From: Proteromonas lacertae
Lineage: Eukaryota
Length of the DNA stretch: 20,000 nt
NCBI GenBank assembly: GCA_002245135.1
Contig: NGBS01000334.1
Location: 45,249 to 65,248 of the forward strand
Direction: 5' to 3'
The translations under genes were made by a program, and so were the position numbers. The number at the start of each line of letters is the position of its first letter. Positions within the stretch are counted from its first letter, which is position 1. Below the pieces are notes generated by a model. The model had not been told where the DNA came from, did not search any database, and saw only the letters and a list, made by a program, of their open reading frames with translations. Shown here in pieces: positions 2,583-19,900 of the stretch.

Positions 2583-3572
2583 ATGATTCCTTATGAACAT
2601 CGTACTTATTACCTTAATTCTGATATGGTATCTTCTGCTAATCAGTTTTCTACTAAGTATAAAAAAGTTTTGCATTTACCTGCATTCGATGAAGATTATT
2701 CTGACATTTCATTGAAAGACTGTGTTATTCCTAATAGTTTTCCTACTATACAAGAGGATACTAATGACACTTTCAGTATATTCATAGATTTACAAGTTAA
2801 TCCATGTTATGGATCTTATAAATTTGATAGAGATGAATTATATAAAGGAGTTAAAATACCAGAAGGTTTTTATACTCAAGATCAAATACTTAAGATTATT
2901 AACAATGTATTCAAAGATATTACATTAAAAGATTTTATGCCTTATAATGAAGAAGTATTATCAGAGGATGATAAGAATATGCAAATGTTTATAGGTGATG
3001 TATTTGAAATAGATGATAAAGATGATTTTCAAACTAATCACTTACAAATAGTTGGTAAAACAACAGTCTTATATGATCCTGTTAGAAGTAGTGGTAAATA
3101 TAGTTATCCAATATGTTGGATTAAAACTATTAAAATAGTTACTAAGGATTTAGCATATAAATATTTTGGTATATCAAAGAAAGGTTATTTTGATTGTTAT
3201 AATCCAGAAGGTAATATTAAATTTGAACCAGGTATGATTAAAGATAACAAAGAAAGATATATTGAAAGACAATTACCATTAGTTCAATTACCTTTCAGAC
3301 CTACTTTAATATGGGTTACTTCCATTACTATTAGAATGGATATAGTAAATATAGATCAAGATAGTCATGTTTTAGATAGTATTCCTATAACAAATCCTGA
3401 ATCAAGTTTTATCACTTATCAGAATTATGATATTTTTAATACTAGTAAAAAGTTTAATAATACTTATAGTAATGGTCAGATCATTTTGCAGATTACACAG
3501 CAAAATGGTTATGAGTTGAATTTAGATAATATAGAGTTTTGTATGAGTATTGTTGTTTTTAAAAGAACTTAA
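2583..3572 (+). CDS. Minor capsid protein (penton, single jelly-roll), Polinton-type
   Basis: Motifs resemble Polinton mCP: YYLNS...NQFSTKY...ISLKDCVIPNSFPTI, IPEGFYTQDQILKIIN, and C-terminal IILQITQQNGYELNL...MSIVVFK. Lies directly upstream of the MCP. Confidence 0.8.
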   Translation: MIPYEHRTYYLNSDMVSSANQFSTKYKKVLHLPAFDEDYSDISLKDCVIPNSFPTIQEDTNDTFSIFIDLQVNPCYGSYKFDRDELYKGVKIPEGFYTQDQILKIINNVFKDITLKDFMPYNEEVLSEDDKNMQMFIGDVFEIDDKDDFQTNHLQIVGKTTVLYDPVRSSGKYSYPICWIKTIKIVTKDLAYKYFGISKKGYFDCYNPEGNIKFEPGMIKDNKERYIERQLPLVQLPFRPTLIWVTSITIRMDIVNIDQDSHVLDSIPITNPESSFITYQNYDIFNTSKKFNNTYSNGQIILQITQQNGYELNLDNIEFCMSIVVFKRT

Positions 3573-3608: not shown

Positions 3609-4937
3609 ATGTCTTTATCTATTCCTAAAGAACAAAAACATGGTGTAGAGACACCTGTTATGCTTCCTTTTTATCAGTATGTAAAATTAAGTCCAGTTGG
3701 CTCAGCAAGTGATTGGACTATAAATGGGGATACATATACTCAAGAAATAAAGTTTGAATTAAGCGGAGATAACATTATTAACTTGTCTAAGTCTTACATA
3801 CAGTATGATCATGTTATTAGAACTACGCCAATTAAAAAAAGTGTGCAAGCATGGACTGGTGATGCAACTAGTAATATAGATAGTTATCCTAATTGCATAA
3901 AAGGATTAAAAGAAGGTTTTGGTATTGCTTCATTCAGAATATGCAATCAGACAGGTACAGATTTAGTTAGAGTGGATGATAGTTATGAACCATATCGTAT
4001 ATTTATGGATGAAATTGTTCGTAAGAGACCAGATCAGTATTATCAAGCAAATTATTATGATGGTATTAAATTGAAATGGAATGATAAAATTAAAGATAAA
4101 GTTATAGAAGATGAAGCTGAGTTTGCAATACCATGGAATAATAATAATAAAATAAAAAATTCTGACGGTGATCGTTATACATATGATAATGAGCCAGAAT
4201 TTAGATTACATGTTAAAATACCTTTAGGAAGATTTTATAATACATTTGCAGCAATGAAAAGTGATGTATTCTTTGCAGAACGTATGTATATATGTATTAA
4301 ATTCCAAACTATTGATAAATTTGGTCCATTTAAATCTTATGCTAATAAAGCTACTTTTAAAACAGCTGGCGATGCTTTAGATAATGCATGTACTTTTAGA
4401 ACACCAGAAGTTGTTGAGAATAACATAAAAATAGAAAATATGAGATTTTATGCATATTATAATAAAGATAGTCAATGCAATAACAATACTAAAAACTATT
4501 GTTTATCTAAACCAATACAATTCAATGATTTTAGATGTCATCAAGTTTCTTATAGTTCTCCTAATGGAATATTCAATTATAGTTTTACATTGAATAGTTC
4601 TAATGGACCATTTTTAAGATTTATTATTTATAGACCATGGGATGAAGACGATAGTAAATGGTTACGTATACCAGAAAATGCACAATTTAGATGGATGATA
4701 AACGACTTTGTTCATCAACCAGATTATGCTTTAATGCAATATTATGATAGTTATATGATGGTACAAGATTATTTTAAAGATTCTTGGTATGATGTTTTCA
4801 GACAAGATAAAAGTTTCAATGAGAAATTTTTCGAAATTTTAAACTTTGGTTCAAGAGATTTAGATAATATTAAGAATCAAGCAGGTAGACCTTTAGCTGC
4901 TGATTATAAAATCTTCTGTTTGCTTGATACGCTCTAA
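3609..4937 (+). CDS. Major capsid protein (double jelly-roll type), Polinton-like; possibly C-terminally truncated
   Basis: ATG at 3609. IKFELSGDNIINLSKSYIQY resembles the Polinton MCP 'IEF...DLSxSYL' motif; also LHVKIPLG...DVFF...MYICIKF; ~440 aa; adjacent to mCP. Confidence 0.8.
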   Translation: MSLSIPKEQKHGVETPVMLPFYQYVKLSPVGSASDWTINGDTYTQEIKFELSGDNIINLSKSYIQYDHVIRTTPIKKSVQAWTGDATSNIDSYPNCIKGLKEGFGIASFRICNQTGTDLVRVDDSYEPYRIFMDEIVRKRPDQYYQANYYDGIKLKWNDKIKDKVIEDEAEFAIPWNNNNKIKNSDGDRYTYDNEPEFRLHVKIPLGRFYNTFAAMKSDVFFAERMYICIKFQTIDKFGPFKSYANKATFKTAGDALDNACTFRTPEVVENNIKIENMRFYAYYNKDSQCNNNTKNYCLSKPIQFNDFRCHQVSYSSPNGIFNYSFTLNSSNGPFLRFIIYRPWDEDDSKWLRIPENAQFRWMINDFVHQPDYALMQYYDSYMMVQDYFKDSWYDVFRQDKSFNEKFFEILNFGSRDLDNIKNQAGRPLAADYKIFCLLDTL

Positions 4938-6212
4938 AATAAGCATTTCTATCTTGCGCTCTTTCTACTAATTCTAATTCATAATGCTTAAACCTCTGAT
5001 TACTAACATTTGGTACAAAGTTACCATTAGTATCACCTATTTGATAAGAAAATCTAAACTTATTTATAATCATATAAACATCATCACTCCAAGTAGTTAT
5101 TTTATCTAATTGTCTTCTTCTTTCTTTAAATCTAACATAGTCACCTACTTTAAATCGTTGTTTATCTTCTAGTTTAAATTCATTATCTACATTTTTATTT
5201 ATGCTTTCAACTAATACTCTTTTCTGTAGTAATTCAGAATGATATACTTCATTAGGAGTATATCCTTTTAATGCAGGATGAGGTTTATTATTATAATCTT
5301 GTACTACTTTATATACTTCATGATTAAAGTTAGTAAGCCACTGATTCATATATGCACTAGGTGGAAAGCTTTTAGCATGAGTTTGATTTCTATAACGAAA
5401 AGGATCAGGAAAGTCTATTTCAACAAGATGTTTATATAATAATTTTTTAACCATAGATACACTTCTATCTAATACACTCATTATTCTATGTTCTGAAGGA
5501 TTCTTTTGATAAGTATTTATACCTTCTGTATCACAAAATTCTTTTATTTTATTAAAACTATCATCTTGATCACTTAATATACTAATAACTCTTCTTTTAG
5601 CTACTATCTTAGGTTGATAGTTTGGATTTAAAAAGCTTCTTGATCTTCTTTATAATACCAAGAAAAGAAAGCATTTAAACAAGTATTTCCATCTTCTCTT
5701 TTCAAAGGTACTACCCATACTTTTCGAGAGTTAGTTTCAATAAAATACAGATGATGTGTTTCAGGTAAAAAATAAACTATATCCATCTGGAACCAACCAG
5801 GCTTTTTAATACTAACGAAAGGATTATCCTTTTTATACTGAAAGTCTACTATTTGATGACCAGGTTGTCTAGCTAAAAATTCTTTTATAGCATCTATAGG
5901 TGGTGGTACTTCATTATTATCTGCAGGATTCATTACCATTTTAATAAAATCTCTATCGCTTAGATAATGATATTTATTATATAGTTGTTGTAAACGATTT
6001 TGATATTGAGAATATTCAGGATTAGGATATAATTTATAGTCAGTAGTAGGAGGTTCTCTAGGTATACCATCTCTACCATAATTCGTATAATATTGCAATG
6101 ATTCAGGATATTTAGGTTGTTTAGGTAAATGTTGTATATTTTTATCCATTAAGTTACCTACATCATTCATAGTATTAAAAAATGCTTTAGCAGGATCCCA
6201 TCCGAAATACAT
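4870..6212 (-). CDS. Retroviral-like (rve) integrase of Polinton type, one 1-nt frameshift at ~5630
   Basis: Adding one T to the T-run at 5630-5634 joins ORFs 5628..6212 and 4870..5481. Motifs: WFQMD, IETNSRKVWVVPLK, ILSDQDDSF, SVLDRSVSMVKK, YNNKPHPALKGYTPNEV and the C-terminal FKVGDYVR...WSDDVYMI...YELELV domain typical of Polinton integrases. Confidence 0.9.
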
Positions 6213-6284: not shown

Positions 6285-9200
6285 TCAAACATTAGTAGTG
6301 TTATTAATAATAGGTGGATAATAATCATTAAAAGGAATACTATGATAAACATCTAAATAATACCTTTTAGAATCAAATATGCTGAAAGCCAACTTAATTT
6401 GTTCCATAGTATATAAAGTTTGGTTAACACTTCTGAAACTATATTGTTTGATTTTATCAAATCTGTAAGACTTTTCATCTTCAGCATCTGTTAATATTTT
6501 TCTATAAAAGTCAAAATCACAAGTTTTAATTCTATATCCAGTTGTAACACCTTTAGCTCTACTATCATGTGTAACAGAATGTATATCATCGTCTACTCTT
6601 ACTTTTTCATAGGCATACATTTTAGGTTTTAATCCTGCAAATCTAGTAATAGAGTATAAACCATTCTTAGTTTCTTCTATTTTTAATAAGTTAAGTTCTG
6701 AACTTTGATTAACATTTGAATAGTGTATACCTCTAGTTATTAAGTATTGTTTATTAAGATTACCAGTATCAACTTTCTTTTCAAAATGTGGATCGTTCAT
6801 AATATCCATATAGAAATCTCTAGTTTTAACCATAAATATGAAACTATCAGTATCACTCATCAATAATCTTAAACTACTCCCATATTTCCTATATAAATGT
6901 CCATACCAGAACTGAGCCATTAACCTTTTAGATTCACATAATATACTCATACCTATATAAGATGGTTTATCAATAGTGCATTTATATTTTTGAAATTTGC
7001 ATATACGTAAGTTACTATTATCTATAGCAATAAAACTTCTATAAAATGGATTGTAAGTACACTGCAAAAAGTCTTCTTCATTATTAACTAATTTGGAAGT
7101 ACACCTATTCTCAGTATTTTCACATGTCTTTCCATAAGCACTATTTAGAATAAGCTTAAAAGTATCAGCATCAGCATCCCTTCCTTCTAATTTAGCTTGT
7201 CTTCTTAAGTTATGATTCATCATTACAAAGTTATGTGCATAATTAGACTCTTTAAATCTGATAATTCTATGAATATGATGTATAACATAACCCATTTCAC
7301 ATGCAAATTTCAAATATTGATAGTGAACAACATAGTTGTATTTTGTTGTTAAATCACATACTATTTTAGGAACATTTGACTTTAACTTTTTAATTTTATA
7401 TGGTTTTATCAATATTATTTTTAACTTCTGAAACTAATCCTAAAGACTCTGCCCATTTCTTTTGTATTTCAGATAAATTATCATAGTCAACTATTTTTCT
7501 TTCAGGTAACAAAGGATATTCAGCAAATTTTTTTCTTTCATCACTATTACTAGGAGGAGAAATATCTACTTCCAGAATATATCCATACATATTTTTATTA
7601 ATCCATTCTGTATTATAATATTTTTCTCTTTGTTCTTCATAGTAATGTAATGATAATATTTTCTTTACATTTTCAGTAGTTGGTTCAATCCATTCAAATC
7701 ACTATATGGTAACTTCATACTAGCCATAGTACTTGGATATAAAGAATTATAATCCATATACATAATATATGTTTGATTATCTGGATCCTGTACTTCCTTT
7801 TTATTTTTCTCTTGCCATTGAGGTTGATAATGATTCCAAGACTCTGCATATCTCATACTACCAACCATAGAAATCCCACCTATTAATCCAGAATGTATAA
7901 AGTCATAAATATCAGAGTCACTTATTAAATCAATTTTTACATCACAATTTTTAAGGAATATACTCCAAGATAAACCAGGTGAACTACAATGCCATAATGG
8001 ATCTAAAGTAAAATTATTCCATATAACATCTCTAAAATGTTCAAATACACATGTTAATGTAAGAACATCTAATCTGAGATAAAATAAATTGTAGTCCATT
8101 AAGTTATCACATCTAATAACTTTCCATAAAGCCTGACAACTAGCATATTCAACATCTGTTACTGTATTATCATCTTTTAACTTCGAATAGAATGCTTCTT
8201 TAGGGAGGTAGTTCAAAAGTATTGAAATATTTAGATAATGAGTCCACATATTCATATGGAAAATATCCTTTAGATAAACACCATTTATGGATAAAAGCAT
8301 CAATATTCATATCATGATCCAATTTACCAGGAGCAGAATATTTTTTATAAATATCTTCATATACATAACTGAAATATTTTTGATAATTTCCATTATCTCT
8401 TTTTGCTTGAGTATATAATGACTTTGTTAAAGAATCTAAAGAACTTGGTAAGAATTGATAAGAGTCCATAAAGTATAATTTGTTGAACTTTATTAATAAA
8501 AATTTATTATCTGTTTTGGGTAATACTGATAACTGTGATTTATATTGTTTTTTGTTTTTATATTTTCTTATTTTACCATCTTTACATTTAATAATTCTAT
8601 AAGCAGATTGTTCATCTATTTCATCTATAACATCTTCTGCATTTCTAGGACTATCCTTCTTAACATTTCTTCTAATTCTAACAATGCATTAACTTCTTCA
8701 TTATTAATTTGGATTACTTCACTTTCAGCTTCTTGAGTTTCCATATCACTTAAAGAATCATGTAATGGACTCATACTGAAATTATTATTATCATCTTTTT
8801 CTTCTTGTTTTTCTTTTCTTAAATTTTTCACATAATCTTTTATTTTATTTGCTGTTATAAAGCCATTAGTATAAGGAGGTAATGGAGTAAATGTATCACT
8901 ATCTTGATGTGGAACAGGAATAGAATTAGTATTATCTTCTTCTTCAGTATCACTATCAGATTCAGTATCTGAAGCATAATTTACATTAGGATCAATATTA
9001 TTTTCTTTACAAAATTCATCTCTTAACTTATTATCCCATCTGGACAATCCTCTAATAATGAAATTATTGTCATAATTTTTGGAATGATGAGCAATACAAG
9101 GGATTGGCATATTATTTAAACATACATGGAAGTTGCAATTATTACATATTCTACCTATATATTGTCCACTAAAGTGGTCGTGGTGTAAAACAGGTTTCTT

Positions 9201-11151
9201 ATTCTTATTCCTATAATCAAATGGTTCTTTACAGTATATGCAATAATTCAATTTATTTTTAGGATCTTCTCTATTATATCCTATCATTTTTTCAGGATTT
9301 TTTAATTTTTCTTCATATAAATCTAATATTTCTTTTTGTATTTCCATAAATTTAGCTATTAATCTATCCTCTAAATCTGTTTCATTATCTTTAGGTGTTT
9401 TAAAATCATACTCAATTTTATTAGGATATATATTAGGATATTTTGATACAACATATAAACACCAACTGGATAATATATGCTTTGATAATATACCTTTCTC
9501 ATTTAAAATTGGATCTGTTACTTTCTCCTGATAAACTTCAGTATCCCAATATATTACTATAGGTATTAATTGCAGGGAAATTTCTTATAATACCTTTATG
9601 TTGTTGACAATTATATTTTTCATGTTGTATTCTTTTTTCATCTGTTGATAATAAAGCAAAACAATAATTACATCTAGGATAACCATTTTTACACTTCTTT
9701 CCTTTAGGTATTAATATTACATTTAATTTTGTAATAGTAGAATAATGTTTATCATTATATAATAAATTCACATGTGGATAATTATTGAATTTATCTATAT
9801 GTGTTACATATATAGGAACTACTTCTTTATCTGTTATTTTGAATATATTTAATGTTATATGATTTATTGTTTCAAATTCATGAATTTGTTTTTTATGTTT
9901 TATAGGATCTACTGGGAAATATAACATACTATAATTGTAGTTAACTCTAATATATTCTTTATATTGTTCTACTCTATTTAAATTCTTATTATTATTATTA
10001 CCATGAAAAAATGCTGCTGCTATAGCATATAGAAAACATAATTGATCATTTTCTCTATTATTATCTATTGATATAACACATTTTCTATTTCTAATCCAAT
10101 CTGGAAGTTCTTTATTTTTGCCACTACCTGCCATAGCAGTTGCTTTGACTAATTGAACTTCAACTTCACCAACATGTCTAAATTTTAAACTTGATTTTTC
10201 AGTATGCCATAAAGGTCCCATTTCTGTTCTTATTCTATCTTTTAATATTTTATGAGCTACATTCATTTCTGATTCTGTAATAACTACAGGTCTACATTCT
10301 AAGAATACCCAATTTGTAATTTTATTACCATTTGGATTATTATAATCTGGATCGTCTGCTCCTATATAACCACTTCTAAAACTTAATGTTACTTTTATAT
10401 ATTTAACATCTTCCAAATATTCTCTTATTTTAGTAATTAATGGACTACTAGGATCAGTTATAATTTCAACAACAGCATCTGGATCTTTACCATTTACATC
10501 ATTTAAAAAGTTAATTTGATATGTTCTACTATAATTATCTGTACTTCTCTGAATTAAGTCCATATAATATAATCTCTTTTCATATGGTAATTTTAATAAT
10601 TTAGTAGGATGATTTTCTAATATATCACTTGCTTCTCTTAAATCTCTTTCTTCTTGATAAGATAAATTTAAATCTGCTACTCTATTACGCTGTTGTGCAT
10701 TTGGTGGAGGTTGATTAACAACAACAACAGGTTGATTTGGATTAGGATTAGGATTAGGCATTTGAACTTGCATACCTCCTTTTCTTTGTATTTTTGGAGG
10801 ACTTATGTTTTCAAAATCTAATCTTCTCTTGGGAGGTGGTGTTACAAATCCTGGTTCAGGAATATTAATTTGAGGTGTTGAATCTACTCCTATATTTCCA
10901 GGATAATAATTAAAACCAGGATTTGTATTTGTAACTAGATTTCTTGGTGGAACATAATTTCTAACTACTGGAATATTTGGAATAGGTGGAGGCGGTTCAT
11001 ACATATTAGGAGGTGCCATACCTGGATATGGCATGGGCATGGGATTAAATCCATAATTTTGTGGAGGAGGAATATAAGGTGCTCCAAATGGTGGTGGACT
11101 ATAATAATTAAAGTTTGAATAATAATAATAAGGAGGGATGAAAGGGTTCAT
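6285..11151 (-). CDS. Protein-primed family B DNA polymerase (pPolB), ~1600 aa, interrupted by 5 frameshifts
   Basis: Fragments join across frameshifts at ~9573, ~8660, ~8204, ~7697 and ~7405. ExoI IVIYWDTE (in a frame not listed in the ORF track, ~9535-9560), ExoII AHHSKNYDNNFII, FMDSYQFLPSSLDSL, KGYFPYEYVDS, ExoIII YLRLDV, motif A YMDYNSLYP, motif B KLILNSAYGK, motif C SDTDSF, KPKMY. Confidence 0.95.
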
Positions 11152-11396: not shown

Positions 11397-11870
11397 ATGA
11401 GTAATTTTGCTAGAGTATATGAATTCTATGTATTCTTTGATGTACTTAAAAATTATATTAGTAGTTTAAATGATATAAGTAGAAGGGTCTATAAATTAAA
11501 TCTAAGTGAAAATTTAAGTAGTAAAGATAAAACAGATCTAAGAGATAAAATAAAGTCTTTTGTAACTTTCATACAAAATATCGAATTGAAATATAACAGA
11601 AGTAAAATAGCAACCACATTTAACAAATCTGAATTAACATCTTATAGACTGGATATTATAGAAGACTTAGAAAAATTAATTAATAAACTGGACACTTTCT
11701 ATGTAGAAGATTTTGCATATATTTCTGAAGAAGATTTCAATTTGAATGCAAATACTATTAAAAATTTTAGATATATAAAAAATCATTATCTCTATTTAAT
11801 CGATACAAATTCAGAATTAAATTCTATATATAATATTTTTAAAACCAGATTGGAAGATGATAAAGACTAA
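11397..11870 (+). CDS. Orphan helical protein (157 aa), element-encoded
   Basis: Intronless ORF with an A-rich start context, divergent from pPolB; its stop lies 8 nt from the stop of the convergent reconstructed ORF. Confidence 0.65.
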   Translation: MSNFARVYEFYVFFDVLKNYISSLNDISRRVYKLNLSENLSSKDKTDLRDKIKSFVTFIQNIELKYNRSKIATTFNKSELTSYRLDIIEDLEKLINKLDTFYVEDFAYISEEDFNLNANTIKNFRYIKNHYLYLIDTNSELNSIYNIFKTRLEDDKD

Positions 11871-12021
11871 TTAATTTTTTATTTGATTTTTAACATATTG
11901 TTTAAAGTTGGTATTATTTCATTTAATTGTTTTTCTAATTCTTTTTGTAAATATTGACTTGCTTTTTTTTTTCCTTCTAATCTTCCTATTTGATGTAATA
12001 CCATATCATCTAATCCTAAAT

Positions 12022-12660
12022 TGTTGTTCCCCGTATGGCGGAAATCCCCGTATGGCGGAACTCTATATTGCAGAATGATTCAATCAAAACTAATATGATA
12101 TTCATGATGTTTGGAGTTAGTTATTAACAAATATATAGTTAGTTTGTCATATGACCTACATCTGTGATATACTTTTTTATGAACTTCATTATTATCAATA
12201 TTAAACTAATTTTTGTATATTTTCTATTTTAATGTATCAGTCACTACTACAGCCTAAAATACATTATCTGATATGAATAGAATACATTATTTTTAATGTT
12301 AAGGCGGTTAAAAAAGAAAAAAGAAAAAATAAGTTCAAGCCTCACTCAAGCCTACTCTTTAATTTCCTTTTTTATTACCTAAACAATAAAAATAATGTAT
12401 TCTATTCATATCAGATAATGTATTTTAGGCTGTAGTAGTGACTGATACATTATAATAGAAAATATACAAAAATTAGTTTAATATTGATAATAATGAAGTT
12501 CATAAAAAAGTATATCACAGATGTAGGTCATATGACAAACTAACTATATATTTGTTAATAACTAACTCCGAACATCATGAATATCATATTAGTTTTGATT
12601 GAATCATTCTGCAATATAGATTTCCGCCATACGGGGATTTCCGCCATACGGGGAACAACA
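12022..12660. mobile_element. Non-autonomous foldback/MITE-like DNA transposon, 639 bp, 283-bp TIRs, 6-bp TSD
   Basis: Arms 12022-12304 and 12378-12660 are reverse complements with about 5 mismatches; 73-bp spacer; ends TGTTG...CAACA; CTAAAT duplicated at 12016-12021 and 12661-12666. Confidence 0.95.
12028..12061. repeat. 17-bp tandem repeat x2 (TCCCCGTATGGCGGAAA) near the left transposon end; mirrored at ~12621-12654
   Basis: Directly visible GC-rich unit starting 6 bp inside each terminus. Confidence 0.9.
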
Positions 12661-12871
12661 CTAAATGATATTCTTCATTTAATTCTTTTAATTTTAATAT
12701 AATCTCACATGCTATTTTAATTGATGTTTGATAGTCATTGCTCCCATCATCTTTCTTATTGAGATATACATTACACATTTCATATAAAGAATCAAAACCA
12801 TTTTCTGCTTCTTCTTTAATTAGATTATCCATATATGAAATTAGAATATTCTAGAAAATGCAAAAATAAAT

Positions 12872-12958
12872 TATGACCTAATATGACATAGGTCACGTAT
12901 TTTTAAAAAGTTTGGTTTGGTGTGCCAGGAGCCCGAGTCATACGGCTCGGTGTGCCAG
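12872..12958. repeat. GC-rich structured segment, candidate right terminal region/origin of the Polinton
   Basis: Inverted repeat TGACCTA(12874-80)/TAGGTCA(12889-95); direct repeat GGTGTGCCAG at 12919 and 12949; hairpin CCGAG/CTCGG at 12933-12950. Host-like sequence resumes at ~12985. Confidence 0.55.
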
Positions 12959-13009
12959 AACCTTTATTTACTATTATTATATATAATACCAATTTTATAA
13001 CCTAAATAG

Positions 13010-13311
13010 ATATTGGAATGAGTATGAAAGGATTTAGAATGTTAATAGATAGATTAAAGTTTTTTAAACTCATAAGAAATTTGAATATATCAGGAAATGA
13101 ATTGAATGAAAAAGGATTAAGATTAATGAAAGAAAATGAAAGAATATTTGATGGTTTAAGGGAATTATCAATAACTGTAAGAGAAGGTGTAGATAAATTT
13201 GAATTAAAATCATTCTTAAAAACATTCTCATCAGTTAATACAATCAAACTAGATGGAATTTCAGAAGAAGAAAAGAAAGAACTATCAAAAGCATTCTTCA
13301 ATATTCAATAA
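13010..13311 (+). pseudogene. 3' exon of a host LRR-like gene lacking its 5' part
   Basis: IRNLNISGNELNEKG and LRELSI are LRR-like. A candidate acceptor AG ends at 13009, but there is no GT donor in the preceding ~50 nt. Confidence 0.5.
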
Positions 13312-13641
13312 TTAATATCTCATTATATTTGTTGTTTGATGGATTAAAAATAAACGAAAGAAGCTGTTATTGAAAATTCTACAAGGTTATACTTAATATT
13401 TCTTCTAATAGAAAATAATATGATGTAAAGGTATTATTTTAAACTATTCTGAGTATAATTATTCCATAACTGAAGAAGTTTAAGAAGAATTTAAATTATG
13501 TGGGGTATGGAAAAAATATCAATCAAATTTGTATTTTGATCAAGCTTTTATCAATCAAATAAAAATATCATTCAAAAACCGTTTTTTCGTTTTTAATTTT
13601 TAGTATGATTAAAGGCTTTATATTTCCTAGATTTTATATAA

Positions 13642-15690: not shown

Positions 15691-16736
15691 TCAGCATATT
15701 AAGCCATCTTCATTAATACTATATGTACAACTCATATTCATATTTGGCCCTTTTAAAACACTCATTTTAAACAAATTATTATTCAAATTCTCTAACAAAT
15801 ACTCTCTATCACTTACATAACTCCATATAACACCATTACCTACTTTATATTCGATTCTATTATCATTTGTTATATTACTAGTTGCTGCATTTGTTAATAT
15901 TATTCCTATATTATACCTCGAACTAATCTCATGAATTAATTGATTAAATACAATAATATCTTGTTGAACTAATGAAATAATAATAAATATATAATAATGA
16001 AAAAATACTGTTTTTATATTCATTATTTTCATATTGATTTGATAATAACAAAGGGTTTATACTATCAATTACAATTAATCTTAAACTATTATAAAATATA
16101 TTATTGTTTCTTTCCATATTGTTTATTACTGAAATTAAGAACAATTTTAATTCATTTAATCGAAATACTCGTTTTATTCTTATTGCCTCTAATAATTTCA
16201 TTTTCATATTAATATTCTAAAAAATTAATTAAAAAGTAATTATACTATATTTGTCCCTATTTGTTTGATTATTTTCAGTATATCAAAATTATTACTAGAA
16301 TCAATATATATCACATTTCCTTCATTTTTCATTACATTATAACATATCAAATGACAGAGACTGCTTTTACCTGTTCCACTTGATCCACTAAACTCATTTA
16401 CACAATTACTGTATATTCCATTATCTAATAGCATATCAATACTTTCTATATTCAATGGAAATATCACATTAACACTTTTAGCTTTTTGTAAGTAACTTAA
16501 TCCACTATTTGCTTTAATACTATACTTTTCTATTACATAACATCTTAAATGGTTTAACAACTACAATAGAAATATATGATAAACAAAAAATATACATCAC
16601 AAGATAAACCACTATTTTTACTTAAACTATCAATATTTCTTTCTAAAAACCCTTCAACTGTTCGAATTGGAGGATCTACATTCGATAAACTATTAATAAT
16701 TTTATCATCACATCCTATAGACAAAAGAGAAGGCAT
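15691..16736 (-). CDS. RAD51D: RAD51 paralog (RAD51D-like RecA-family ATPase), spliced
   Basis: IRTVEGFL N-terminal domain, IESIDMLLDNGIYSNCVNEFSGSSGTGKS (Walker A), VIYIDSSNNF, LRLIVIDSI (Walker B), IILTN, GVIWSYVSD. ORF breaks coincide with short AT-rich intron-like segments (~16563-16595, ~16215-16245, ~15972-16008). Paralog identity is less sure than the family. Confidence 0.75.
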
Positions 16737-16991
16737 TTTTATATTTTTAAGAAATCCCGCCAAAACTCAGATCATGAATGTAATTTACATTCTTTATACT
16801 TATTGTTGGTAATTAATTAAATTGAAGTGTATATACCAATTCAGAATACAAAATTGGAAGTTCTGAAATTTAAAAAGTAATTAATAAAATTCTACAACAA
16901 CCTTAATGCATGAATTAGATTTATTAAGTAATCAATACATAAACATTAACCAAATATTAACAACAACAATAATATAGACTAATTATCTCAT

Positions 16992-19900
16992 TTACTGATT
17001 CAACATTCCAACACTTCCATATTCTATTGCCAATAATATATTCTTTTTCATTGTCTCATAATCACTATAAGGAGGTAAATCCACTAAAAAGAAACAAGTA
17101 TGAGCTGTTGGTAATTGAGATGGATCTCCAGCTTTTCTAATCTTGAATTTAGTTGCCCAATTATAAGTACATGGAATTCTTGTTACTCCCCATACAAAAT
17201 AAATCCAACTACTCTTTTGCTCTTCAGTCAATTCATTCATCACAATCAGAAATTGTTTATTACATCATCATCTTCATTATATCCTTCATATTGAGTGTTT
17301 CTCTTTAATGCAGATATATCAATTTCTTGACTTCCGCATATGAAATATTCTAATTCTGATACACTTAAGAAATATAAAACATTTTCGTGTATAACACTAT
17401 ACAAACCATCTCTCATTGAATCAATTTGTTTATCAAATTCATTTATTCTGAATTTATATATTTTATCTAACATTTCATCTCGATTTTCTAATGTTAATGA
17501 GATGTTTGATCCACCATCAATAAATTCTTCATATTCACCTATGAAATTAGATACAACACATTTCGTATCTTCATCAACTACATATGGGAAATCTTCATCA
17601 GAACATTCTTTAATACTGTTTATATAATTCACTATTATTGGATCAATAAATTCTAAATCTTTCATTGTTATATCTTCTGTTTTTCCTAACAATTTCTTCC
17701 ATACTAAAGGTGGGAATGAGAATGGTAATGATAAATCATATCTTAATGATATTCCCATCAGTATTCCAATGAATTTATACATATTTAATAAACTTGGACA
17801 TTTCCATTTAGGATATGGCACAAATGTACCTGTTTTTCCACAATTTAACATTAATTTCAAATTTGGATTGAATATACTACTTACAATCTGAGTTATTGAA
17901 TCTCTAAATAAACCACCAGCATCAATTCCTTCTTCACCTTTATACATAACAGTCATAAAGAATTTATTACATTTAAACAATTCTATAGGTTGATCTTTTA
18001 ATTGTAAATACGCTTGAATAAACATTGAATGACTATGTAATGGATTATCAAATACTACACTCTCTTCTTGTTTTGCAGCTAATGAATCAAATAATACTGG
18101 GAACTGGATTAATATCTACTGCATTCTGTTTTAAAATTGTGGATATGAAAGTAAATTTTTGTAAACGAGGTAATAGATAAAGTGATTCTTTCATTTGATT
18201 TCCTAAACAATTTGGATATTTTAATGAGAAATCTACTAATAAATAGAATATTTCCCATAATTGTATGAATTCATCAATTAATCTAAGTCTAAAATCTCTC
18301 AATAATTGTGGATAACTACATAATAATGGATATTTCTTCTCAAATCCTTCTTCTTGTCGGAAATGAATACCACCTCCTAGTTTATTGGCATTATAATATT
18401 TTATAATCTCTAAATCAGCTTCTATTGGCCATTTATGCATTTTTCATATAAACTTAATATCTCTTCTTTGTTCTGATTTACAACATTAGATAACTTATCT
18501 CTCGGGAATCTACAAATTGAATCTACAATTACTGAAATACCATAGTATTCTTTATCTGTTGGAAAAACAGCACCTTCTTCTTTTGTTATTGAGAGACTAA
18601 ATCCACTACATGTAGCTTTTATTATTGGTTGATATGGAGGTTTCACTATATGTTTTTGTTCTCCAATTTTTATCATTAAATGATATTTGGGTGGTAATCT
18701 AAAACGAGGATCAAAGAATATTCTACATTGCTCAGCACCAGGTATTGAATATGTGCAATTAAAACTATCATCTCTAATTGGATGATCAGAATTAAACTCT
18801 TTTACTACAAAGTAATTTTAAACCAGAAAGTACAGAAAAAATCTTCTGGAAAGTATTGCTGATTTAATCCTCTAAACCATAATGGTGCAAATAATAAACT
18901 AATTTCAACTAAATCTTCTTGTTTTGTTAAATCTTTTAATGGTTCAAATGAGAAGTTTTTAATGTTGGTTTTTCTGTTCTTATTGATTTTGTTACTTGAT
19001 TATTGATATTTTTCATATGATATAATATTTCAGCGAAATATTTATATCTGTTTGATAAGGCAGAGTTCTTTTGCATTAATATACTAAATATAGAAAATAC
19101 ATCAGATATTGGTTCTAAATCAATTGTATAATCAGATGGGAAAACGTCAGGAGATGATAGTAACAATAAAACATCTTAATACTTTCAATATTACCATATT
19201 CTTTAATTCATGGATTAATGATGTATATAACTCAATATTAATCTGTTTATGTTTATATATATCTATCATTTTACTATTAAACAATGATTCACATACCATA
19301 AACCCCATTTTCTATCAGGTATACTGTTTATATCATCTTCAGTTGTCCATTTATGAACTGGTAATTCTCTCACCTCAAATCTAAACCCCCATGTTTGTTG
19401 ATTTCCTTTTAATAAATATTTGAACCACACTGTATCTCCATCTATTACTAATGGAGGAAATACTCCATTATTACCACTATATATGACACTATTATTAAAA
19501 TTTTCATCTCCTGATAATAACAAATAACTATTTCCATTACTACCAAAATCTGTATTTAAATCGAATATAACTATCAATCTTTTTGCTTCATTTAAATGTA
19601 CTTTACCTGAATATGATACTGGCATTTGAATGGGATGTAGACTTTCTTTAATTACATAATTATCACTTATTGTTGTATAATCATTATCTTTAATATGATT
19701 CAATATTTGATGCATATTATATCATATAATCTATTCTGAAACTCTTTATCTTTACTCCACAAGATAATTATGAAATAGATTTGTTTCATATATTGTACTA
19801 TCAAGTGTATTATTCATTACATTTCCAATCATTAAACGAGAAAATAAGTCCATTATATAATCAGTAGGAGATTGTTTTATTTTAGCTATTAATCTTTCAT

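Follow-up and report, generated by a model that had tools for sequence, protein, structure and literature searches.

A 639-bp foldback element with TGT...ACA ends inserted in a Polinton-like virus of Proteromonas lacertae

Introduction

Which enzyme carried a short, gene-less palindrome into a gene of an endogenous virus? The question is raised by a 20,000-nucleotide stretch of a Proteromonas lacertae contig (hereafter the window, to which all coordinates refer), bases 1 to ~13000 of which are a Polinton-like virus. A first-pass annotation of this DNA had described a foldback element nested in a viral gene, and had tentatively attributed its movement either to the integrase of the virus itself or to a related Ginger/IS481-like transposase. 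Transposons nested in endogenous protist viruses are already well documented.

Anatomy of the palindromic element

The insert occupies positions 12022-12660 (639 bp) and is bounded by an exact CTAAAT target-site duplication, with the left copy at 12016-12021 and the right copy at 12661-12666 (both on the plus strand). The left arm (12022-12304, plus strand, 283 bp) starts with TGTTGT, that is (TGT)2, and is followed by a 73-bp centre (12305-12377) and by a right arm of 283 bp (12378-12660, minus strand), which ends in ACAACA and is complementary to the left arm at 278 of the 283 positions. Pairing of the arms is ungapped over the entire 283 bp, with five substitutions at element positions 40, 91, 208, 275 and 280, and the two terminal 20-mers are perfect inverted repeats of one another (20/20). 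The centre comprises a degenerate continuation of the arms, ~20 bp per side, and a core that contains a short direct repeat, TCAAGCCT. This inverted pair is the longest of 627 in the window, the runner-up being 55 nt long at 71%. The arm and spacer lengths, the TGTTG/CAACA ends and the exact CTAAAT duplication given by the first-pass annotation were all recovered. Given the base composition, the chance of a 6-bp match at both fixed junctions is ~0.0009. The sole alternative returned by a boundary scan, a 641-bp element with a 4-bp TAAA duplication and 19/20 matching end bases, was rejected as a sub-window of the CTAAAT duplication with mismatched end bases.

The element has no coding capacity, as had been proposed, since the longest stop-free stretch over its six frames is 52 codons; Rfam gave no match to it under E 0.1, and the six weak matches all lay far below the gathering score. 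Inverted repeats, a target-site duplication and a short non-coding length, the features by which a MITE or other non-autonomous TIR transposon is recognised, were all found, and the view of the insert as a non-autonomous, gene-less transposon in a viral ORF holds. A solo LTR was considered and dropped because the element is an inverted repeat. TGTTG at each end fits both the TGTNR pattern of Ginger1/2 and the TNT..AYA pattern of IS481EU.

Inside each end, a GC-rich 16-bp motif is present in two exact copies with a 17-bp period, the first starting 7 bp in (left arm, 12028-12043 and 12045-12060, plus strand; right arm, 12622-12637 and 12639-12654, minus strand). The window holds four matches to this motif, all within the element, against 0.01 expected, and the outer 40 bp of the arms have a GC content of 55-57.5%, compared with 23% for the remainder of the arms. 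The doubled motifs likely represent transposase-binding sites.

Searches for copies or relatives returned little. The 20-base end of the element had no exact match in viral, metagenome and prokaryotic contigs, collections that contain little eukaryotic genome sequence, and the doubled motif had no locus in viral contigs. In prokaryotic genomes, the doubled motif was found at 62 loci, most of them GC-rich tandem repeats and many reading Pro-Tyr-Gly-Gly; these were dropped as candidate transposon ends after inspection of their flanks, in which none carried the doubled motif on both strands. A distant BLAST search with the left arm and centre yielded 13 plasmid records and one phage record, all short AT-rich matches with a coverage of at most 31%, none covering the end.

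The interrupted viral ORF

When the element and one duplication copy are removed, the minus-strand frame that opens at ATG 12832 extends over 102 codons, with the last base of its stop at 11879, so that the restoration of a 102-aa ORF announced by the first-pass annotation was reproduced; both frame-shifted joins stop, at 58 and 59 codons. The 5' part of this ORF comprises 57 codons (12661-12832, minus strand) and the 3' part 44 codons plus the stop (11879-12015, minus strand), the stop lying 8 bp away from a convergent ORF at 11397-11870. In its present state, the frame reads through 57 native and 25 element-derived codons, giving an 82-aa ORF (12584-12832, minus strand).

After shuffling of the downstream flank, 0.55% of 20,000 sequences remained open over 44 codons, and among 20,000 random 44-codon stretches of the gene-dense window 14.7% were open. 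A codon-use model trained on 11 other ORFs of the viral region assigned +20.2 bits to the 57-codon half and +20.0 bits to the 44-codon half, while scores for the other frames of both halves ranged from -11 to -78 and the tail contributed by the element scored -9. Because both halves show virus-like codon use and the other frames and the tail score negatively, a genuine gene was likely struck by the insertion. No homologues were found for the 5' half (candidates of 45-144 aa) or for the 3' half (candidates of 78-2000 aa); the struck ORF is small, lacks a homologue among these and is not a core gene. The insertion is genuine and clean; that it is also recent, as had been suggested, is plausible. 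Inactivation of the virus should not be assumed, because Polintons bearing insertions are described as able to stay mobile (bioRxiv 2025.02.07.637071) and virophages bearing Ngaro elements, in the portion of the account consulted, have no more fragmented genes than others (PMC8547959).

The surrounding Polinton-like virus and its host neighbourhood

The viral region encodes a protein-primed family B polymerase (pPolB; 6285-9550, minus strand), two pieces of which were matched by PF03175 (E 8e-6 and 4e-12), one of the two above the cut-off. A 537-aa ORF with a proline-rich N-terminus (9538-11151, minus strand) stops at the point from which the polymerase frame continues; it may form the N-terminal part of the polymerase. 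A divergent retroviral-type integrase with one frame change near 5630 lies at 4870-6212 (minus strand); it had no Pfam match and five matches, two of them full-length, among 1.84 billion representatives. The full-length relatives, 435 and 460 aa long, are each encoded by a single ORF and have 48-61% identity to the two halves in the window; they keep the D..D..D/E motif, whose third position is D in the window copy and in one relative (P0002) and E in the other (P0001). A PDB profile search returned HTLV-2 integrase cores alone and weakly (E 0.64-0.7), and all rows listed by Foldseek were retroviral integrases, none at E<=0.001, for a poor model (pLDDT 43). The assignment to the retroviral type is consistent with these comparisons but weak.

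In addition, a likely major capsid protein (3609-4937, plus strand; no Pfam match) was recognised weakly through the protein-cluster atlas (recognition 1643), where its nearest clusters are ~90% viral and some of them include members with Capsid_N (16%) or Sputnik MCP (10%). A likely minor capsid protein (2583-3572, plus strand; Pfam matches sub-threshold) is suggested by size and position. No ATPase, protease or left TIR was identified within the 20-kb window, and related Polinton loci were confirmed neither in viral contigs with capsid, polymerase or integrase queries nor in metagenome contigs with the integrase alignment.

One-base frame changes were located at 5610-5650 (integrase), at 7650-8680 and 9525-9560 (polymerase) and at 17225-17270 (host HECT gene), which suggests long-read assembly errors. 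Since the host HECT gene near 17245 is also frameshifted, the integrase and polymerase frameshifts may be such errors as well, and the Polinton may be intact in the cell despite them.

Towards its right end, the Polinton carries a GC-rich patch (12911-12970) with two GGTGTGCCAG copies around a hairpin, beyond which the DNA is AT-rich as far as a likely splice acceptor of the host (13008-13009), the right-end region being taken as 12911-13009. A further hairpin with a 7-bp stem is present at 12875-12896; this hairpin and the patch are likely part of the right terminal repeat or origin. Because the left end lies outside the window, we place the right end by inference, between the GC-rich patch and the splice acceptor.

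To the right of the Polinton lie host genes, namely CFAP52, a RAD51-like gene and a HECT ligase. CFAP52 has an intron of 33 nt and at most 51% identity to the matches listed, except for one protein at 97%, and the host seems to be a divergent protist with flagella. The RAD51/RecA-like gene (15691-16570, minus strand) has short introns and a Walker A-like motif in its translation. A leucine-rich-repeat-like frame without Pfam match (13010-13311, plus strand) starts after the likely splice acceptor, which suggests that the Polinton lies within a host intron. Downstream of the stop codons of three host genes, at 13330, 15624 and 16960-16968 (-), there are GT-rich words (TGTTGT, TGTTTGTT) that presumably resemble the downstream polyadenylation motif of Blastocystis; the ends of the element open with the same word, TGTTGT.

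A separate integrase-like transposase as the probable mobiliser

The element is probably a MITE or foldback transposon that owes its mobility to a separate, trans-acting DDE transposase (IS481/Ginger/GingerRoot-like) encoded at another locus of the genome, the identity of the mobiliser being deduced from the sequence of a single insertion. This reading is favoured because the TGT...ACA ends fit those of Ginger1/2, IS481EU, IS3, IS481 and IS1202, because prokaryotic IS481 and IS3EU/GingerRoot normally generate 6-bp duplications, and because the doubled internal 16-bp motif matches the usual layout of IS ends, in which a short cleavage domain is accompanied by an internal binding region (bioRxiv 2022.12.17.520857). 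TGT ends are described for IS3, IS481 and IS1202 in the same source (bioRxiv 2022.12.17.520857), and non-autonomous TGT-ended families occur in protists (PMC10045372). Against it, the searches turned up no partner transposase, further copy or empty site, no described eukaryotic family matches every feature, and the (TGT)2 end and 6-bp duplication fit a Polinton-type element too. Because each eukaryotic family fails one test, the element would be a MITE-like member of the integrase-like group without assignment to a named family.

Under the proposed mechanism, a predicted trans-acting DDE transposase, encoded elsewhere in the host genome, would bind the doubled 16-bp motifs inside each end and cleave at the terminal CA-3' of the element. 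The ends would then be joined to the target over a 6-bp stagger, which host repair would fill to produce the CTAAAT duplication, and the Polinton would have served as a chance AT-rich landing site, not as a helper. The insertion would thereby have truncated the viral gene to its 57 native codons plus 25 from the element. What the window itself shows is the product of these steps: the structure of the insert, its 6-bp target-site duplication and the disrupted ORF.

The mobiliser named by the first-pass annotation is therefore upheld in part: the ends do point to the retroviral-integrase-like group of enzymes, but not to the integrase of the resident Polinton, whose right-end region they do not resemble. 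The 6-bp duplication, which it called typical of Polintons, does not by itself single them out, as most prokaryotic IS481, IS3EU and GingerRoot elements make 6-bp duplications too.

Alternative explanations

It is unlikely, though worth weighing, that the element is a miniature Polinton satellite that borrows the ends of a Polinton family and was inserted by the integrase of that family. The resident Polinton would be a less likely helper than a sister family whose ends are (TGT)2, with copying perhaps protein-primed; such sister families are plausible because two clusters of related integrases were found, 48-61% identical to the halves of the window copy. A 6-bp duplication, found here, is a Polinton hallmark (PMC12220804, PMC8097293), and the Polinton in the window does carry a retroviral-type integrase, weakly assigned as it is. 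The doubled trinucleotide TGTTGT recalls the (AGT)2 ends that have been linked to jumping-back initiation, and Polinton end motifs vary, an AC type being reported from swamp eel (PMC8097293). The (TGT)2 end of the element is reiterated in this manner, yet it is not a described AG- or AC-type motif, and the described Polinton ends all start with A in the excerpts consulted (PMC6839031, PMC8097293). TGTTGT is also common, with 28 sites on both strands in 20 kb, and nesting by itself is uninformative because viral sequence makes up ~13 kb of the 20-kb window.

A non-autonomous TIR transposon must carry ends that its helper recognises. The terminal 60 bp of the element resemble positions 12833-13010 at chance level only, their score being reached by 349 of 500 block shuffles and by 84 of 107 tiles of the window; no ACA occurs on the plus strand in 12963-13221, and no CAACA in 12667-13640. 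Compared over its full length, the arm is weakly similar to 12863-12906 in AT-rich sequence (a score reached by 17 of 500 shuffles and by 8 of 107 tiles), a similarity that involves the arm interior and not the end. The motif of the element and the end region of the Polinton have a 7-mer in common, which was set aside as chance, there being four such matches outside the element. The neighbouring Polinton is disfavoured as helper because the ends of the element are unlike both its right-end region and described Polinton ends. The associated proposal, that (TGT)2 would act as protein-primed origin and integrase attachment site of a satellite of Polinton viruses and so constitute a new end motif, is doubtful and decidedly unlikely. 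If true, a 0.6-kb snap-back satellite would depend on enzymes of the virus for its copying and insertion, and would disrupt the genes of viral copies already in residence; a Polinton-dependent element would be a parasite of the virus, and a minimal natural substrate defining the sequences needed by the Polinton integrase and polymerase. No MITE moved by a Polinton integrase appeared in the titles and abstracts found, most subscription literature lying outside that search.

Long arms and subterminal repeats are typical of foldback elements of MULE, hAT and P-like kinds, and those of the present element would fit a foldback derivative of such a DDE superfamily whose TIRs start with TGT by chance. 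However, duplications are usually ~9 bp in MULEs and 7-8 bp in hAT and P elements, with different end bases, and these lengths differ from the 6 bp found here. MULEs do nest in Halocafeteria PLVs and virophages (bioRxiv 2026.07.28.741278), but TGT...ACA is a signature of the integrase-like group (PMC2836005, PMC10045372, bioRxiv 2022.12.17.520857), and this origin is improbable. An introner, spliced from the viral transcript and leaving the gene in working order, is very improbable: such elements are common in dinoflagellate Polinton-like viruses (PMC11957031), and, read along the coding strand, the duplication has a terminal AG and the element a GT at its second base, yet no GT/GC-AG pair near the junctions restores the empty-site length, the nearest GT pairs being off by -1, +1 or +4 bases. 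The in-frame options alter the protein by 1-26 codons, the +1-codon option requiring a GC donor at element position 34, and all of them call for an intron of 567-678 nt, compared with 33 nt in the observed host intron. A foldback artefact, produced by long-read sequencing or during assembly, is scarcely credible as the source of the palindrome. The assembly likely does contain one-base errors, as the frameshifts in HECT (near 17245), the integrase and the polymerase indicate, but within the window the arm sequence is confined to the element, the interrupted ORF continues in frame across the flanks, and the exactness of the duplication, the TGT...ACA ends, the distinct sequence of the centre and the five differences between the arms all stand against an artefact.

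Comparison with known systems

Mobilisation by a separate integrase-like transposase can be set against the families whose ends or duplications resemble those of the element. Ginger1 and Ginger2/Tdd share with it the TGTNR ends and the occurrence of non-autonomous copies, and have protist members (Tdd-4, Tdd-5); Ginger1 TIRs of 40-270 bp come close to the 283-bp arm, but duplications are 4 bp in Ginger1 and 4-5 bp in Ginger2/Tdd (5 bp in Tdd), against 6 bp here (PMC2836005), although 6 bp is given for Ginger2 elsewhere (PMC6839031). IS481EU of parabasalids likewise has TGT...ACA (TNT..AYA) ends and non-autonomous protist families, but its duplications are ~4, 15 or 25 bp and its TIRs mostly shorter than 50 bp, compared with 6 bp and 283 bp in the element (PMC10045372). 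Prokaryotic IS481 combines TGT ends with a 6-bp duplication in most members (PMC10045372, bioRxiv 2022.12.17.520857), and the ISAba32 group of IS1202 has TGT ends with a 5-6-bp duplication (bioRxiv 2022.12.17.520857). IS3EU/GingerRoot elements share the 6-bp duplication and an integrase-like enzyme (PMC6839031, PMC10045372) and have TIRs of 100-150 bp (PMC6839031); their ends are mostly TA...TA, the TG...CA of the present element occurring in 5 of 77 GingerRoot copies (PMC6839031), and they are 4-13 kb long and known from plants and animals (PMC6839031, PMC10045372). Polintons/Mavericks resemble the element in their 6-bp duplication and short reiterated terminal motif, but end in (AGT)2, (AG)3 or (AC)3A instead of (TGT)2 and are gene-bearing elements of 13-25 kb, whereas the insert is 639 bp and gene-less (PMC8097293). 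Polinton ends are of the AG type and rarely of the AC type (PMC8097293), and are noted to be unlike LTR ends (PMC6839031).

The combination of TGT ends and a 6-bp duplication, normal in bacterial IS481, is unmatched by the eukaryotic families compared, as far as the excerpts of their descriptions extend. On the favoured reading, the modest value of the element is that it points to an active family of integrase-like transposases which combines TGT ends with duplications of 6 bp. The accounts of virus-nested transposons consulted, in the portions covered, contain no description of a TGT-ended foldback element with a 6-bp duplication. They do describe comparable nesting: Ngaro in Cafeteria virophages is likewise a mobile element of the host in a viral genome, but a retroelement (PMC8547959); a MULE and a LINE are nested in Halocafeteria PLVs (bioRxiv 2026.07.28.741278) and retroelements in cryptophyte PLVs (PMC12220804), in both cases elements of another kind; and the Submariner elements of Pandoravirus are nested MITEs, but of Tc1/mariner affiliation (PMC4495683). 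These nested elements are each moved by the enzyme of their own family and sometimes lie inside a gene, and the insert at this locus is best read as one further mini-transposon in an endogenous protist virus.
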